Below are positions 60,868 through 63,956 of a stretch of DNA of 64,000 bases, piece by piece. This DNA comes from Escherichia phage KKP 3954. The DNA lies in sequence record OR067838.1. The stretch is one strand, 5' to 3'. The notes under the pieces are model-generated. The model was not told the DNA's origin, searched no databases, and saw only the letters and a program-made list of their open reading frames with translations. A program made the position numbers and the translations under genes. Numbering within the stretch: position 1 is the stretch's first letter; each line of letters starts with the position of its first letter.

Positions 60868-60896
60868 ATCTTAACATATAAAAAATAATAAGTCAA
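60868..60896 (-). promoter_or_regulatory. sigma70-like promoter on minus strand (TTGACT, 17-nt spacer, TAAGAT)
   Basis: Hexamers read from reverse complement. Confidence 0.45.
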
Positions 60897-60913: not shown

Positions 60914-60938
60914 GCAAAAAGCCTCCAATAAGGAGGCC
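60914..60938 (-). terminator. rho-independent terminator closing the tRNA cluster
   Basis: GCCTCC-TTATT-GGAGGC then TTTTT on minus strand. Confidence 0.55.
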
Positions 60939-61053
60939 AATAAATACTGTTAATTTGAAATGCTTTATTATGATTGTGCGTTAAGGAGTCGCACCCCTCC
61001 ATCTTAGAAGGAACCAGGCAAGGTCTTCAAAGATACCGCTGGCAAGCGATATT

Positions 61054-61132
61054 TGGAGGCGGGAATTGGATTTGAACCAATGATCTCCAGCATATGAAAC
61101 TGGCGAGGACGACCAGACTCCTCTATCCCGCT
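61054..61132 (-). tRNA. tRNA-Met (anticodon CAT), initiator-like
   Basis: Manual fold: T-arm ATTGG-TTCAAAT-CCAAT, anticodon loop TTCATAT; 3' CCA encoded; ends approximate by 1-2 nt. Confidence 0.6.
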
Positions 61133-61138
61133 ATCATG

Positions 61139-61208
61139 TATCCCGTGCTGGATTCGAACCAGCGTCACAATAAATTGTGGATCTCTTATCCTGTAAGTCT
61201 AACGGGAA
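61139..61208 (-). tRNA. tRNA-like gene, aberrant (anticodon arm has only a 4-nt loop); possible pseudogene
   Basis: Good T-arm GCTGG-TTCGAAT-CCAGC and 6-bp acceptor stem, but anticodon region folds as CACAA-TTTA-TTGTG. Confidence 0.4.
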
Positions 61209-61210
61209 AC

Positions 61211-61284
61211 TGGTTGTTTCGACAAGAATCGAACTTGTGTCTCACGATTATCAGTCGTGGGTTCTACCATTGAACTACGAAACA
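61211..61284 (-). tRNA. tRNA-Ile (anticodon GAT)
   Basis: Manual cloverleaf: acceptor TGTTTCG/CGAAACA, loop CTGATAA, T-arm ACAAG-TTCGATT-CTTGT, CCA encoded. Confidence 0.7.
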
Positions 61285-61290
61285 TTTAAT

Positions 61291-61367
61291 TGGTCGGAAT
61301 TGCAGGATTCGAACCTGCGACCCTACGCTCCCAAAGCGTATGCTCTACCAAACTGAGCTAAATTCCG
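61291..61367 (-). tRNA. tRNA-Pro (anticodon TGG)
   Basis: Manual cloverleaf: acceptor CGGAATT/AATTCCG, loop TTTGGGA, T-arm GCAGG-TTCGAAT-CCTGC. Confidence 0.7.
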
Positions 61368-61372
61368 TTATA

Positions 61373-61448
61373 TGGCTGGTCTGTCTGGATTTGAACCAAA
61401 CCTACGACAGTCAAAGTGTCGTGTGCTACCGGACTACACTACAAACCA
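61373..61448 (-). tRNA. tRNA-Gln (anticodon TTG)
   Basis: Manual cloverleaf: anticodon stem CGACA/TGTCG, loop CTTTGAC. Confidence 0.6.
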
Positions 61449-61546
61449 ATAAATCATTTAATGAAGGGCAACCAGAAGAAGTGTGAGAGAAGGAGAAAAC
61501 CATGAGTAAAAGAGAAAGTTTTCTGGCAACCCTTTATTAAATAATT

Positions 61547-61620
61547 TGGAGCGTTCTACGAGGATCGAACTCGTGCCGCCGACTTGGAAGGACGGAATGC
61601 TACCGCTACACCAAGAACGC
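61547..61620 (-). tRNA. tRNA-Gly (anticodon TCC)
   Basis: Manual cloverleaf: acceptor GCGTTCT/AGAACGC, loop CTTCCAA, discriminator U. Confidence 0.6.
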
Positions 61621-61631
61621 CCTATATATTT

Positions 61632-61661
61632 ACTATACTACATTTTACTATTTGTTGTCAA
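61632..61661 (-). promoter_or_regulatory. sigma70-like promoter on minus strand (TTGACA, 18-nt spacer, TATAGT) for the downstream tRNA genes
   Basis: Hexamers read from reverse complement just upstream of tRNA-Gly. Confidence 0.5.
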
Positions 61662-61933
61662 GACTTTTATTGATTGGGACAGTGACGAGTATCCCGTTGG
61701 GTGACTAGCCCTACGTTCGGTAAGCTAACTTAAAATAATACAAAACCAAAGTCAAATATTATTCTTCGTTGCTGTCGATGGGAGAGCCGCTTCTCATTTT
61801 GCCCCATCCAACCCTACTCCGGTCAAGTTTCGGGTGACTCTTTTTGTGATCAACACAATACTAAGAACACTGTCTTTCGAGCAGACCTTGTGCACAGGAA
61901 CGACGATCAATCACAATGCTCTTAATGTTGTGT

Positions 61934-62008
61934 TGGTGCTCCCACACTGAATCGAACAGAGATCCACGGATTACAAAACCGTTGTAATAGCCATTATACT
62001 ATAGGAGC
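61934..62008 (-). tRNA. tRNA-Thr (anticodon TGT)
   Basis: Manual cloverleaf: acceptor GCTCCTA/TGGGAGC, loop TTTGTAA. Confidence 0.6.
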
Positions 62009-62014
62009 AATGCT

Positions 62015-62091
62015 GGGACTCGGCAGGATTCGATACCTGCAATTCCAGAAGCCTATTGGCGACTGGGGGTTTACCTTAACTCTACAAGTCC
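62015..62091 (-). tRNA. tRNA-like gene, anticodon unresolved (irregular anticodon arm, 8-nt T-loop)
   Basis: 7-bp acceptor stem GGACTTG/CGAGTCC and T-arm GCAGG-TATCGAAT-CCTGC, but no canonical 5-bp/7-nt anticodon arm. Confidence 0.4.
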
Positions 62092-62098
62092 ATAATTC

Positions 62099-62184
62099 TG
62101 GCGATGAGTATAGGATTCGAACCTATATTGTTCTTTCGAACACGGATTAACAGTCCGCCGCTTAAACCGTTCAGCCAACTCATC
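62099..62184 (-). tRNA. type-II (long variable arm) tRNA with Asn anticodon GTT
   Basis: Perfect 7-bp acceptor GATGAGT/ACTCATC, discriminator G, CCA encoded; anticodon arm CGGACTGTTAATCCG; variable arm GTTC-GAAA-GAAC. Confidence 0.6.
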
Positions 62185-62190
62185 TTAATT

Positions 62191-62278
62191 TGGTGGTGAG
62201 TGATGGAGTCGAACCACCCGAATCGCAATGATAACAGATTTACAGTCTGCCCCGCTACCCCTACGGAATTAACTCACC
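62191..62278 (-). tRNA. tRNA-Tyr (anticodon GTA), type II
   Basis: Anticodon arm GCAGA-CTGTAAA-TCTGT; discriminator A; CCA encoded. Confidence 0.65.
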
Positions 62279-62409
62279 TAAATACTAATATTTAAATTCT
62301 TTTTAAAATAGCCAGTGTTCGCACCACTAACTATGAGTTATCGGTAAGATGGTGGGGGGCTATCTTCCGAAAGTTTACTCTATTAAAGTAAGCTACATTA
62401 AAAAGAACT

Positions 62410-62495
62410 TGGCGGTAGATGTAGGACTCGAACCTACACGCCGTTTCCGACTACAGTTTAGCAAACTGTCGTGGCTACCATTTCACCAATCTACC
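62410..62495 (-). tRNA. tRNA-Ser (anticodon GCT), type II
   Basis: Anticodon arm ACAGT-TTGCTAA-ACTGT; long variable arm; discriminator G. Confidence 0.7.
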
Positions 62496-62500
62496 TAATC

Positions 62501-62591
62501 TGGCGGAAGGAGGGAGAGTCGAACTCCCAAGGCTCTTTCAAGCTCGGCGGTTTTCAAGACCGTTTTCGTCGCCACATCGATTTGCCCTTCC
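62501..62591 (-). tRNA. tRNA-Ser (anticodon TGA), type II
   Basis: Anticodon loop CTTGAAA; T-arm GGGAG-TTCGACT-CTCCC; long variable arm. Confidence 0.65.
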
Positions 62592-62599
62592 ATACTTAT

Positions 62600-62629
62600 A
62601 ATCTAACATAAAATAATGATTGTTGTCAA
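62600..62629 (-). promoter_or_regulatory. possible sigma70-like promoter on minus strand (TTGACA; -10 TAGATT) upstream of tRNA-Ser
   Basis: Hexamers read from reverse complement. Confidence 0.35.
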
Positions 62630-62825
62630 TACTTTTTTAAAACATTTTACCATGAATGGTGACTCCACCAACCCCCGTTCTCCACGAACGGTGCTCTTCG
62701 AGCATTTATGTCTTCTAATATAACCGTGGCCTTTGTTTATAATGTCTGACATACTTGCCTCATTCTCTGCCACCATGATCAGTAGTGGGTTCAAATCACT
62801 TGAGCTAATTCATGTTAAAATGTTC

Positions 62826-62900
62826 TGGTGTCTTTACAAGGAATCGAACCTTGACTAAGAGTTTAGAAGACTCCTGTGCTATCCATTACACCATAAAGAC
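62826..62900 (-). tRNA. tRNA-Arg (anticodon TCT)
   Basis: Acceptor GTCTTTA/TAAAGAC; loop CTTCTAA; T-arm CAAGG-TTCGATT-CCTTG. Confidence 0.65.
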
Positions 62901-62902
62901 GT

Positions 62903-62977
62903 TGGTGGCCCTGGCTGGTTTCGATCCAGCTACCTATCGGTTATGAGCCGACAGCTCTCCCATTGAGCTACAGGGCC
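62903..62977 (-). tRNA. tRNA with anticodon CAT, Ile2 (lysidine)-type by resemblance to E. coli ileX; alternatively elongator Met
   Basis: Acceptor GGCCCTG/CAGGGCC; loop CTCATAA; 5' and 3' ends resemble E. coli tRNA-Ile2. Confidence 0.6.
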
Positions 62978-63183
62978 ATAAATGTGGTAACAGAGACGCT
63001 GACGATTGTAGAGAACCGCTACATTCTCTAAGACCAAGCCCAACTTTCAGCGTAAAAGTTCTTGAGCCGAGACTATTCCTTTTCCTCTTTGGTAGCTAAC
63101 CTCTGAAGAAGTAGTCTCTAACACTATCCGCAGTGCAAGCCCCTCTTAACAAAAGTCAACGACCCTGTTACCACACTTGATGA

Positions 63184-63210
63184 ACGTATCCTAACATATG
63201 AAGGATACGT
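63184..63210 (-). terminator. 8-bp perfect inverted repeat ACGTATCC...GGATACGT (hairpin downstream of minus-strand gene 63225..63473)
   Basis: Read directly; no clear U-tract. Confidence 0.3.
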
Positions 63211-63224
63211 TTGTCAATAGTTAT

Positions 63225-63481: not shown

Positions 63482-63733
63482 CTAATCTGTTAGTTGTTCG
63501 TCCTCTACCAAGTTTGACACGAGAACGTCTGTTATACATTGATGCTGATAAACCCTTTCGGGACTATCATCAAAAGCCAAACCTGTGCAAATAGAACAGA
63601 GGTCTGATTCCTTGATGACTCCATTTTTATCACGTCTGGAGTGGTTTGTCAAATGCCTATTACAAGCACGGCACCTAAAATAAAAGCTATTTTGCATATA
63701 TCCTTCGAACCCCAAATGGGGAGTGATCGGCAT
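63482..63733 (-). CDS. small zinc-ribbon protein
   Basis: ORF track; CRAC...CSIC. Confidence 0.45.
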   Translation of the reverse strand: MPITPHLGFEGYMQNSFYFRCRACNRHLTNHSRRDKNGVIKESDLCSICTGLAFDDSPERVYQHQCITDVLVSNLVEDEQLTD

Positions 63734-63770
63734 CTCCTCACTTCTAGTTTAGCACGAAGGATATCTTAAG

Positions 63771-63956
63771 TCAACTAGGAATAATTTTATCCCTTTTGGT
63801 TTCATAACCAGTCCAATCTAAATCCTCCCAGCCTTCATCATCGTCTAACACATTGTCATCGTCATAAGATGCAATGTTATAAATAGAACGTGGATTACAA
63901 GACATACAATCTTTAATAGGCACATGATGCCATTTGCACGGATTATCACTAATCAT
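63771..63956 (-). CDS. small cysteine-containing acidic protein
   Basis: ORF track. Confidence 0.4.
   Translation of the reverse strand: MISDNPCKWHHVPIKDCMSCNPRSIYNIASYDDDNVLDDDEGWEDLDWTGYETKRDKIIPS

Follow-up and report, generated by a model that had tools for sequence, protein, structure and literature searches.

Bacteriophage T4 encodes eight tRNAs in one cluster, together with the stable RNAs species 1 (rnaC) and species 2 (rnaD). The T4 operon is processed by RNase P, and its stable RNAs have tRNA-like features. T5-like phages (Demerecviridae) carry a far larger set of tRNAs with ORFs interspersed, among them a tRNA-Tyr and a tRNA-Lys with a demonstrated anti-defence role (PMC11555353). 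For members of the genus Phapecoctavirus, genome papers give 10-11 tRNAs (PMC7862966, PMC10793346).

The window analysed here is a 64,000-nt stretch of Escherichia phage KKP 3954 (OR067838.1). The phage is a Phapecoctavirus, a phAPEC8-like E. coli myovirus, and its tRNA operon occupies the minus strand from 60914 to 63217, with 12 cloverleaf tRNAs, two tRNA-like RNAs, three sigma-70-type promoters and one terminator (Table 1); no credible ORF was found between 60939 and 63224. The cluster itself is already known. Near-identical clusters with 10-11 annotated tRNAs stand in dozens of GenBank records, many Phapecoctavirus records match the window at 98% identity, and the locus is 96-98.5% identical across its whole 2.35 kb in phAPEC8, ESCO5, Mt1B1_P17, AV126 and others, with the same annotated tRNAs in unchanged order. 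Less ordinary are a tRNA-Asn that bears an additional arm and several tRNA-like RNAs that lack annotation. In the Phapecoctavirus records inspected, the long arm of the ‘tRNA-Asn’ passes without remark, while tRNA-Ser(UGA), tRNA-like RNAs A and B, the leader and the conserved hairpin have no annotation. We read the operon, with a probability of roughly 0.75, as a source of decoders for codons that the phage overuses, chiefly in its late genes.

Like the T4 cluster, the KKP 3954 locus is a polycistronic phage tRNA operon with non-tRNA RNAs embedded in it. It shares Arg-UCU, Ile-CAU, Thr-UGU, Ser-UGA, Pro-UGG, Gly-UCC and Gln-UUG with the T4-type set, as annotated in Tequatrovirus Kha5h. Unlike that set it has no Leu-UAA, and it adds Tyr, Asn, Ser-GCU, Ile-GAU and a Met-type CAU; the Asn of Kha5h is an ordinary 75-nt tRNA. 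tRNA-like A, tRNA-like B and the leader resemble the T4-type stable RNAs in being non-tRNA RNAs encoded within a phage tRNA operon. Descent from T4 rnaC or rnaD was considered for them and set aside as there is no sequence homology, a blastn comparison of the spacers and tRNA-like elements with the Kha5h locus, which contains rnaC, having given no match; the likeness is functional only. Neither tRNA-like B nor the hairpin element was found in the T5-like tRNA region.

Table 1. Features of the KKP 3954 tRNA operon, in the direction of transcription
Feature	Coordinates	Strand	Characteristics and support
Promoter P1, upstream of entire cluster	63188-63217	-	TTGACA, 18-nt spacer, TAGGAT, with TG; 10/12
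Structured leader RNA, ~200 nt	62980-63178	-	22-bp closing helix ending just before first tRNA
tRNA-Ile2 type (CAT)	62903-62977	-	ARAGORN; Rfam 64.5 bits
tRNA-Arg (TCT)	62826-62900	-	ARAGORN; Rfam 66.3 bits
Promoter P2, before Ser-TGA	62600-62629	-	10/12, with TG
tRNA-Ser (TGA), long variable arm	62501-62591	-	non-canonical D arm CAAA-UCG-AUGUGG-CGA-CGAAA
tRNA-Ser (GCT), class II	62410-62495	-	ARAGORN; Rfam 56 bits
tRNA-like ‘top half’, Ser-Tyr spacer	62308-62363	-	AUAGCC ... AGUG-GUGCGAA-CACU-GGCUAU; fold
tRNA-Tyr (GTA), class II	62191-62278	-	Rfam 39 bits (cut-off 29); missed by ARAGORN
tRNA-Asn (GTT), class-II-like 15-nt variable arm	62099-62184	-	GUUC-GAAA-GAAC + AAU, G73, CCA; ARAGORN; Rfam 60.5 bits
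tRNA-like RNA B	62015-62091	-	7-bp acceptor stem; 5-bp T stem, 8-nt loop (UAUCGAAU); no CCA
tRNA-Thr (TGT)	61934-62008	-	ARAGORN; Rfam 55.6 bits
Promoter P3, before tRNA-Gly	61632-61661	-	TTGACA, 18-nt spacer, TATAGT; 11/12
tRNA-Gly (TCC)	61547-61620	-	ARAGORN; Rfam 56.1 bits
Conserved long hairpin, Gly-Gln spacer	61452-61546	-	pyrimidine-rich loop (UUUCUCUUUU..CUCAUGGUUUUCUCCUUC)
tRNA-Gln (TTG)	61373-61448	-	ARAGORN; Rfam 54.9 bits
tRNA-Pro (TGG)	61291-61367	-	ARAGORN; Rfam 70.8 bits
tRNA-Ile (GAT)	61211-61284	-	ARAGORN; Rfam 72.2 bits
tRNA-like RNA A	61137-61210	-	acceptor stem + canonical T arm GCUGG-UUCGAAU-CCAGC; no CCA
CAT tRNA, Met-type, 79 nt	61054-61132	-	ARAGORN; Rfam 50.1 bits
Conserved 3' trailer, three hairpins, last tRNA to terminator	60975-61053	-	conservation
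Intrinsic terminator	60914-60938	-	GGCCTCC-TTATT-GGAGGCT then TTTTT; hairpin 60938-60920

ARAGORN finds 10 tRNA genes, all on the minus strand; together they span 61054 to 62977, in exact agreement with the coordinates in the first-pass annotation of this DNA. The Rfam tRNA model RF00005, at its gathering threshold of 29 bits, recovers the same 10 at 50-72 bits and adds tRNA-Tyr, with a match at 62194-62278, so that 11 genes lie above the threshold (39-72 bits); Ser-UGA and tRNA-like A and B do not. The twelfth tRNA, Ser-UGA, comes from comparison with other phages. Read from the sequence, all 12 have a 7-nt anticodon loop, U33, a purine at 37 and a 7/5 acceptor/T stack, and all 12 encode CCA. 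With the two tRNA-like RNAs this makes 14 genes, the first-pass estimate having been about 14, most with CCA encoded. Every tRNA identity named there is correct, including the Ile2-type CAT, and the three ‘unusual members’ it left unnamed are taken to be the long-arm tRNA-Asn and tRNA-like RNAs A and B.

A motif scan recovers the terminator together with P2 and P3, the signals between which the cluster had earlier been placed, and detects P1 as a further promoter; the fractions of 12 in Table 1 are matches to the promoter consensus. Promoter-like matches across the whole region number 7 against 7.3 in shuffled expectation and are thus not in excess. An extended motif, TTGAC-N14-16-ATGTWR, occurs four times in the window (0.8 expected), with three of the four inside the 3-kb operon region; P1 carries it as TTGAC...ATGTTA. 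P2 is kept upstream of a different Ser-TGA gene in Justusliebigvirus (77% over 57 nt). The leader folds on the minus strand with an MFE of -77 kcal/mol (z = -5.9). Compared with phiWec181/188, more distant members of Phapecoctavirus, 8 of its 66 consensus pairs show both-sided compensatory changes and none is broken; a search of Rfam with the leader gave no match. At the other end of the operon, the 3' trailer has counterparts of 94% identity in phiWec181/188 and of 88-90% in Justusliebigvirus; its fold, at z = -1.7, falls short of significance.

The preferred reading draws on codon usage in 62 phage ORFs (17.6k codons), set against the Kazusa frequencies for E. coli; values computed from a 49-kb E. 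coli locus were similar and were kept out of the ratios. The eight most phage-enriched codons are ACA (4.1x), AGA (3.8x), UCU (3.0x), CCU (3.0x), ACU (2.9x), AUA (2.8x), AGG (2.5x) and GGA (2.4x), and the cluster has tRNAs that read every one of them (chance 4e-4; Mann-Whitney p = 0.006). Codons read by the cluster fill 44.5% of positions in the structural (late) block, which was assigned by PHROGs (terminase, tape measure, tail fibres), compared with 35.9% in the replication block and 34.1% in E. coli. The match is a correlation and is partly expected of any AT-rich phage in a GC-richer host, the phage GC content being 39.6%; to that extent it bears out the earlier suggestion that the set compensates for differences in codon usage between late genes and host. 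Since the codons for Asn, Tyr and Met and those of Ile-GAU show only mild enrichment (0.7-1.7x), the corresponding tRNAs are poorly explained by codon supply.

Host sigma-70 RNA polymerase would start at the three phage promoters and end at the one terminator, giving polycistronic precursors. From these, RNase P and the 3'-processing enzymes of the host would cut out the 12 tRNAs of Table 1, from Ile2-CAU to the Met-type CAU, and would also release stable non-tRNA RNAs: tRNA-like A and B, the structured leader and the hairpin RNA. Once charged by host synthetases, the phage tRNAs would make decoders more plentiful for codons that end in A/U or are rare (ACA, AGA, UCU, CCU, ACU, AUA and GGA). 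Demand would be greatest in the phage structural genes, which lie directly downstream of the operon.

Two of the tRNAs have a CAT anticodon. The determinants of TilS, reportedly defined by Ikeuchi and colleagues in 2005, are C4-G69, C5-G68 and G27.U43 together with a CAU anticodon. All three pairs can be read in the Ile2-type CAT tRNA, which shares about 95% identity with its CAT counterpart in T4-like phages and is predicted to read AUA after lysidine modification. The other is the 79-nt Met-type tRNA. In bacterial initiator tRNA-fMet the anticodon stem has at its base a run of three G-C pairs (29-31:39-41). Because these are absent here (stem CCAGU/GCUGG, with A29-U41 and U31.G39), the gene was not adopted as an initiator. 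It does carry the formylation determinants, a 1:72 mismatch and a purine11:pyrimidine24 pair (PMC9976931), in the form of A1xC72 and A11:U24, and its residue 73 is U. The 1:72 mismatch is kept in most relatives (as C1xC72, C1xU72 or U1xU72), while phiEa21-4 has A1-U72.

tRNA-Ser(UGA), with its aberrant D arm, is without annotation in two near-identical records inspected. Its anticodon loop, CUUGAAA, has 7 nt. Its only Rfam match is a sub-threshold one to the tRNA-Sec model RF01852 (35.7 bits; cut-off 47), and it shares a long variable arm and G73 with tRNA-Sec. tRNA-Sec and allo-tRNAs were sought by an 8/5, 9/4, 8/4 or 9/3 acceptor/T architecture combined with a score above the RF01852 threshold. 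We rejected this identity for Ser-UGA, which unlike those tRNAs (8/4 or 9/3) has the ordinary 7/5 architecture and an anticodon that is UGA and not UCA; the D-arm portion of its tRNA-Sec alignment is mostly mismatched.

In tRNA-like A, two short hairpins replace the D and anticodon arms, with a 4-nt loop, and the fold has z = -3.7. In tRNA-like B a long hairpin replaces the anticodon arm; B has no annotation in any of the 40 rows listed from 87 matching records. In phiWec181/188, where ordinary spacers are about 81% identical, the odd members reach 95-99%: 95-96% for A, 96-98% for B and 97-99% for the Gly-Gln hairpin (z = -5.5). The stem of this hairpin is wholly replaced in sequence, with pairing kept, in Justusliebigvirus and a Klebsiella phage. 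By these comparisons the leader, the hairpin and tRNA-like A and B, unannotated as they are, are under selection. The Ser-Tyr spacer, in which the ‘top half’ lies, has an identity of 94% with that of ESCO8, of 85% with an rV5-like phage and of 75-77% with phiWec181/188.

The unusual members could also be decaying, functionless pseudogenes (A, B, Ser-UGA and the 79-nt CAT tRNA), with only 9-10 canonical tRNAs of any consequence. A and B indeed lack CCA and the anticodon loop of a canonical tRNA, Ser-UGA escapes both ARAGORN and RF00005, and public records label some genes of the cluster as doubtful: the 79-nt tRNA is ‘Pseudo-CAT’ in one, tRNA-Tyr is ‘pseudo’ in one, and the phiEa21-4 homolog of Ser-UGA is a ‘tRNA-Ser, possible pseudogene’. 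We give this explanation little probability. All four are 94-98% identical across lineages, well above the ordinary spacers, and tRNA-like B keeps 99% of cells paired over its 19 pairs, four of which have changed on both sides. Ser-UGA, which the first-pass annotation had rightly proposed, is 89% identical to the Erwinia phage phiEa21-4 gene with its stems kept; across three lineages its T, variable and anticodon stems show compensatory changes, and UCU, the enriched codon named above, is one that it reads. Another explanation, compatible with codon supply, is counter-defence: the tRNAs would mainly replace host tRNAs destroyed during infection, whether by PrrC, retron-Eco7 PtuAB, PARIS AriB, Schlafen-type nucleases, colicin-E5-like enzymes or a general depletion of host tRNA, and odd shapes such as the long-arm Asn and the D arm of Ser-UGA would make poor nuclease substrates. 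In T5-like phages, which carry a tRNA-Tyr related to that of KKP 3954, phage tRNA-Tyr rescues from retron-Eco7 and tRNA-Lys from PrrC170 (PMC11555353), and works cited in PMC13056530 describe nuclease-resistance mutations in phage tRNAs. The tRNA-Tyr of KKP 3954 has a 100% identical counterpart in an unrelated Vequintavirus, and phiWec181/188 replace the Tyr-Asn module as a unit, which argues that single tRNAs are exchanged horizontally; Tyr and Asn are also among the tRNAs that codon supply explains least, and the long-arm Asn is widespread in viruses, with cellular copies mainly in large tRNA arrays. As the main role, counter-defence nonetheless seems unlikely to us, as it does not predict the codon match, the strongest signal in the data, and in the one published test found a T5-like phage tRNA-Asn gave no rescue from PrrC170.

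The long-arm tRNA-Asn raises a question of charging. Classical class II tRNAs are those for Leu, Ser, Tyr and Sec, with tRNA-Asn listed in class I (PMC7609411). By its GUU anticodon the phage tRNA falls outside these isoacceptors, yet it has the class II shape: a variable region of more than 10 nt (here 15) that forms a stem-loop, its 4 bp capped by GAAA, and a D stem of 3 bp. It differs from class II tRNAs in lacking the G2-C71 of E. coli tRNA-Ser and the A73 of Leu and Tyr. Such an arm might let host SerRS charge the tRNA with serine, or with serine alongside asparagine, so that mistranslation of AAY codons would be deliberate or tolerated. SerRS ignores the anticodon and reads an extended variable arm together with G73; the arm, G73 and G1-C72, all present here, are serine identity elements, and tRNA-Ser with a mutated anticodon is still serylated (PMC9976931). 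The variable stem equals that of the phage Ser-GCU in size, and T5-like members of the family carry both G1-C72 and G2-C71. Even so, serylation has very little probability in our judgement. Pair 2:71 is A-U in KKP 3954, while G2-C71 is absolutely conserved in E. coli tRNA-Ser (PMC9976931); U1-A72, the pair of E. coli asnT, is found in 54 of the 81 members of the family; and substantial misincorporation of Ser would be costly with Asn at about 6% of phage codons. The anticodon arm is moreover a copy of that of host tRNA-Asn, with a 19-nt stretch identical to asnT. Asn identity consists of the anticodon and G73 (PMC9976931), and both elements are found here (G34-U35-U36 and G73). Given the host-type anticodon arm and G73, the tRNA is most likely charged with asparagine, even with the added arm. 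AsnRS approaches its tRNA from the variable-loop side, and the long arm could hinder it.

The existence of a viral family of long-arm tRNA-Asn is well supported. At least 80 distinct sequences occur in IMG/VR, with a variable hairpin of 11-19 nt and frequently a GAAA loop. The variable stem covaries: a hairpin of at least 3 bp forms in 84% of 80 distinct viral homologues, as opposed to 24% of shuffled sequences. Both its novelty in the literature and the function of its arm are uncertain; no published description of the family was found in the literature searched. We tentatively entertain, with more doubt than confidence, that this is an undescribed viral family of class-II-shaped tRNA-Asn(GUU) whose arm is selected and alters which proteins handle the tRNA. 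The arm might then protect the tRNA against host nucleases that target tRNAs while AsnRS recognition is retained, or alternatively give it a dual Asn/Ser identity. BLAST matches annotated as tRNA-Asn come from T5-like phages, Stephanstirmvirinae and large Klebsiella/Enterobacter phages; in the first two of these groups the sequence confirms the long arm. In T5-like phages the tRNA has 83 nt and the arm GUC-GAAA-GAC. In cellular genomes, the few copies outside the tRNA arrays are solitary and lie on short contigs. About one in eight viral-contig tRNA-Asn genes with the same anticodon arm (15 of the first 120) carries the long arm.

ARAGORN, run on the window, finds 10 tRNA genes on the minus strand whose limits, 61054-62977, are exactly those read from the raw sequence in the first-pass annotation, so that such reading alone is shown able to detect a phage tRNA operon. 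The Rfam tRNA model (curated threshold) returns the same 10 (50-72 bits) together with tRNA-Tyr(GTA), which scores 39 bits; a twelfth, Ser(TGA), is missed by both. CCA had been called encoded in most members, and it is present in all 12 cloverleaf tRNAs and absent from tRNA-like A and B. No credible ORF was found in 60939-63224. By megablast, the window belongs to Phapecoctavirus, the phAPEC8-like E. coli myoviruses, and at least 80% of the 2.35-kb region is covered in 69 phage records (96-98.5% identity among the matches listed). The genus is already known to carry this cluster as an ordinary feature, since matching records annotate 10-11 tRNAs in an order identical to the window's and genome papers report 10-11 (PMC7862966, PMC10793346). 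What interest remains lies in a class-II-shaped tRNA-Asn family and in conserved RNAs within the operon; standard annotation overlooks at least four such structured RNAs and the probably functional Ser-UGA, in a phage family under development for therapy. Identity to this E. coli phage locus reaches 100% among records that bear the label of Campylobacter jejuni phages (MG0656xx; blast hits H28, H108 and H206) and are probably mislabelled or contaminant assemblies.

Positions and composition of the tRNA operon and its elements
Feature	Position	Strand	Character	Unit, 5' to 3'
P1	63217-63188	minus	sigma-70-type, perfect TTGACA, 18-nt spacer	structured leader, Ile2(CAU), Arg(UCU), spacer
P2	62629-62600	minus	sigma-70-type, perfect TTGACA, 18-nt spacer	Ser(UGA), Ser(GCU), spacer, Tyr(GUA), Asn(GUU), tRNA-like B, Thr(UGU), spacer
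P3	61661-61632	minus	sigma-70-type, perfect TTGACA, 18-nt spacer	Gly(UCC), hairpin, Gln(UUG), Pro(UGG), Ile(GAU), tRNA-like A, CAU tRNA, trailer, terminator
Terminator	60938-60920	minus	GC-rich hairpin and T run; closes the transcription unit	
Leader	62980-63178	minus	~200 nt, between P1 and first tRNA	
Ile2-type CAT tRNA	62903-62977	minus		
tRNA-Ser(TGA)	62501-62591	minus		
Ser-Tyr spacer element	62308-62363	minus		
tRNA-Tyr(GTA)	62194-62278	minus		
Long-arm tRNA-Asn	62099-62184	minus	86 nt	
tRNA-like B	62015-62091	minus		
Gly-Gln hairpin	61452-61546	minus		
tRNA-like A	61137-61210	minus		
CAT tRNA	61054-61132	minus	79 nt	
3' trailer	60975-61053	minus		

The tRNA-Asn has a 3-bp D stem and a 15-nt variable region (GUUC-GAAA-GAAC plus AAU), breaking the rule by which bacterial class II tRNAs are those for Leu, Ser, Tyr and Sec only. 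Compared with the host genes E. coli asnT and serU, it shares with asnT an identical 19-nt stretch, CGGCGGACTGTTAATCCGT, that spans the anticodon arm, as well as G73-CCA, and departs from it in the acceptor, the D arm and a 10-nt insertion. The variable hairpin is kept elsewhere with its sequence changed, to GAAC-GAAA-GUUC in Justusliebigvirus, GAGA-GAAA-UCUC in a Klebsiella phage and GUC-GAAA-GAC in T5-like phages. The Asn genes of the T4-type phage Kha5h and of phiEa21-4, in contrast, are ordinary at 75-76 nt. Derivation from tRNA-Tyr, suggested by the acceptors (GAUGAGU vs GGUGAGU) and a one-base anticodon difference, was dropped because the anticodon arm is identical to that of asnT and the D arm and GAAA hairpin are more Ser-like than Tyr-like.

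Such long-arm tRNA-Asn genes are common in viruses. The 86-nt gene matches 695 phage records by blastn, and a pattern scan of IMG/VR yields at least 121 candidates, at least 104 of them called tRNA-Asn by ARAGORN (103 of these 79-91 nt). Among the IMG/VR matches listed there are at least 81 distinct sequences including the window's own, 80 of them long-armed, with variable regions of 11-19 nt; a hairpin of 3 bp or more is possible in 84%, vs 24% of shuffled controls, and half have a GAAA loop. Within the same listed set G73 occurs in 78 of 81, and the 1:72 pair is U1-A72 in 54 and G1-C72 in 25. Of the Asn genes on viral contigs that share this anticodon arm, an unselected sample (the first 120) shows the long arm in 15. 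Across 185k bacterial and archaeal genomes the pattern matches mostly by chance, either in ordinary Asn tRNAs whose acceptor stem contains TTCGA or antisense to the variable arm of tRNA-Ser; true cellular copies sit mostly in large tRNA arrays, with a few solitary ones on short contigs. No description of a long-arm phage tRNA-Asn was found in the literature searched, whose scope left out most subscription journals, the 1980s T5 tRNA sequencing included.

Several non-tRNA elements of the operon are more conserved than its ordinary spacers, which are ~81% identical between the window and the more distant phiWec181/188 genomes. Against the same two genomes, identity is 98% for tRNA-like B (96% in a Serratia Justusliebigvirus), 95-96% for tRNA-like A, 97-99% for the Gly-Gln hairpin and 94% for the first 80 nt of the trailer. 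In tRNA-like B the acceptor stem is 7 bp and the T stem 5 bp long, the T loop has 8 nt (UAUCGAAU), and a long hairpin takes the position of the anticodon arm. Its ESCO8 copy is changed on both sides at 2:71, 3:70, one T-stem pair and one hairpin pair, and UCUAGA-AUUU-UCUAGA substitutes for the central hairpin. Pairing holds in 99% of cells over the 19 pairs, and 4 of these have changed on both sides, vs 0 of 500 shuffles. The gene is contained in 87 records and is unannotated in all 40 of those listed.

The leader has no Rfam match and folds with z = -5.9. The 22-bp helix that closes it is fully conserved, ends directly 5' of the first tRNA and would be an RNase III-type substrate; relative to phiWec181/188, 8 of the leader's 66 pairs are compensatory and 0 are broken. 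The Gly-Gln hairpin (z = -5.5) has had its stem wholly rewritten in Justusliebigvirus and the Klebsiella phage (loci L007, L008 and L252:1471-1589) with a long stem kept, and conserves a pyrimidine-rich loop that includes UCUCCUUC. This loop, UUUCUCUUUU..CUCAUGGUUUUCUCCUUC, is also the complement of a strong Shine-Dalgarno sequence. A plus-strand micro-ORF in the hairpin (GAAGGAGAAAACC-ATG, encoding MSKRESFLATLY and a stop) was ruled out because its ATG becomes ATA in phiWec188, its peptide changes in both length and sequence from one lineage to the next, and in three of four lineages the tRNA strand has the better folding energy. Folding is not significant for the 61662-61933 spacer or the 3' trailer (z = -1.7 each). 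The Ser-Tyr spacer holds a tRNA-like acceptor/T 'top half' with a GUGCGAA loop that accompanies tRNA-Tyr in an rV5-like phage (85% identity, L003) and ESCO8 (94%, L008), and the trailer has a similar loop, GGUGCGA. In function the conserved structured RNAs of the operon would resemble the stable RNAs of the T4 tRNA operon (species 1 and 2), to which they have no sequence similarity; RNase P or RNase III may process them.

The Ser(TGA) gene proposed from manual folding holds up at the level of stems and compensatory changes despite the miss by both tRNA finders. Its sole match is to the tRNA-Sec model, at a sub-threshold 35.7 bits (cut-off 47). The RNA combines a normal 7/5 acceptor/T stack with G73, CCA, a variable stem capped by GAAA and an anticodon loop, CUUGAAA, that is canonical; its D region is displaced (CAAA-UCG-AUGUGG-CGA-CGAAA). 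This displaced form occurs in three lineages, namely the window, phiWec181 and phiEa21-4, an Erwinia phage whose annotation calls it 'tRNA-Ser, possible pseudogene'. Between the three lineages compensatory changes affect the T stem (GGGAG/CUCCC vs GAGGG/CCCUC), the variable stem (GCU/AGC vs GCG/CGC) and the anticodon stem (CGGU/ACCG vs CUGU/ACAG). Ser-UGA is most likely functional, because the UCU codon is 3x enriched in the phage and a conserved promoter lies immediately upstream. Identity as a tRNA-Sec or allo-tRNA is ruled out by the 7/5 architecture, the UGA anticodon, the score and a mismatched D-arm alignment.

Two further tRNAs carry a CAT anticodon. The one that opens the operon, ~95% identical to the CAT tRNA of T4-like phages, had been labelled Ile2-type, and rightly so: C4-G69, C5-G68 and G27.U43, which we take to be the TilS determinants of E. 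coli tRNA-Ile2, can all be read in its sequence. In the 79-nt CAT tRNA positions 1 and 72 are mismatched (A1xC72), 11:24 is A11:U24 and base 73 is U73; relatives vary the mismatch as C1xC72, C1xU72 and, in a T5-like phage, U1xU72. Initiators are marked by three G-C pairs in the anticodon stem, and because these are missing here the gene is not filed as one. Its 1:72 mismatch and 11:24 pair are formylation-type features of initiators (PMC9976931).

The suggestion that the tRNA set offsets a phage/host difference in codon usage gains support, by correlation only. Counts from 17.6k codons, in 62 ORFs of the window that do not overlap, were set against E. coli frequencies of the Kazusa table; similar values, kept out of the ratios, came from running 49 kb of E. 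coli K-12 (one locus) through the same script. The eight most enriched codons (ACA 4.1x, AGA 3.8x, UCU 3.0x, CCU 3.0x, ACU 2.9x, AUA 2.8x, AGG 2.5x and GGA 2.4x) are all read by cluster tRNAs (chance 4e-4), and covered and uncovered codons differ (Mann-Whitney p = 0.006). Directly downstream on the minus strand, PHROGs places genes for terminase, tape measure, tail and tail fibres in 21281-59470; to the plus-strand block it assigns primase/helicase and DNA polymerase. The cluster tRNAs read 44.5% of codons in the structural block vs 35.9% in the replication block and 34.1% in E. coli; AUA is enriched 3.6x in late vs 1.4x in replication genes, and ACA 5.0x vs 2.4x. It is this coverage of the top eight codons, together with the richer late genes, that supports the idea, and the classical account in terms of codon supply suits this phage well. 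The match is best for Thr, Arg, Ser-UGA, Pro, Ile2 and Gly and poorest for Asn, Tyr, Met and Ile-GAU (0.7-1.7x).

For Tyr and Asn, a counter-defence role is plausible, in which the phage genes would replace host tRNAs destroyed by anticodon nucleases (PMC11555353, PMC13056530), and it does not exclude codon supply. In its favour, tRNA-Tyr (62191-62278) is 100% identical to the copy in an unrelated myovirus subfamily, the rV5-like Vequintavirus (L003:1505-1592), an identity that points to recent horizontal transfer of this single gene with its upstream spacer. The Tyr-Asn module is moreover swapped in phiWec181/188 (L005:2012-2251, L006:2402-2645) for a different tRNA-Tyr and an ORF of 42 aa that has a good ribosome-binding site (MLFDNWFDLEKVCIGITFTGGAPEYKYAMLQTNGLSVRLQSI); the neighbouring tRNA-like B is retained at 98%. 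That the odd members of the operon are pseudogenes is contradicted by their conservation and covariation. Ser identity resides in a long arm, G73 and G1-C72/G2-C71, independently of the anticodon, and Asn identity in the anticodon and G73 (PMC9976931). Because the Asn elements are present and pair 2:71 is A2-U71, we favour acceptance of Asn by the long-arm GUU tRNA, at a probability of about three in four, and charging with serine, which the arm and G73 would allow, is unlikely. If the arm does govern recognition by the synthetase or by anti-phage tRNA nucleases, it would offer a new handle on the phage-host tRNA arms race.

A motif scan recovered the terminator and the promoters at 61632-61661 and 62600-62629 that had been proposed by eye. 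Promoter-like sites are overall no more numerous than shuffled expectation; the extended motif TTGAC-N14-16-ATGTWR occurs 4 times in 64 kb vs 0.8 expected, 3 of the 4 within the tRNA region. A promoter of its own for tRNA-Tyr, as in T5-like phages, was rejected for want of an acceptable -35/-10 pair upstream. Closely spaced minus-strand TTGAC(A/T) promoters (60868-60896, 62600-62629, 63188-63217, 63623-63652 and 63746-63774), three with an ATGTTA extended -10 (60896, 62629 and 63217), precede very small ORFs and tRNA units, a run typical of an early region immediately upstream of the terminase/structural block.

Long arms on normally class-I isoacceptors may extend beyond Asn in phages and tRNA arrays. 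Klebsiella phage phi1_175008 encodes an 89-nt tRNA-Glu(UUC) with the variable hairpin GUAG-GAAA-CUAC (L252:1590-1678), and in two arrays (L138, L183) the ARAGORN calls include tRNAs for Lys (88-90 nt), Ile (93 nt) and Glu (89 nt). Verrucosispora/Micromonospora chromosomes (L142, L145, L168) hold 32-36 tRNA genes per 8 kb, each array with a 90-nt long-arm tRNA-Asn. The rV5-like tRNA cluster also contains an irregular tRNA-like gene of 99 nt (L003:1103-1201), which ARAGORN reports as 'tRNA-???' with a 4-base anticodon call, atcc.
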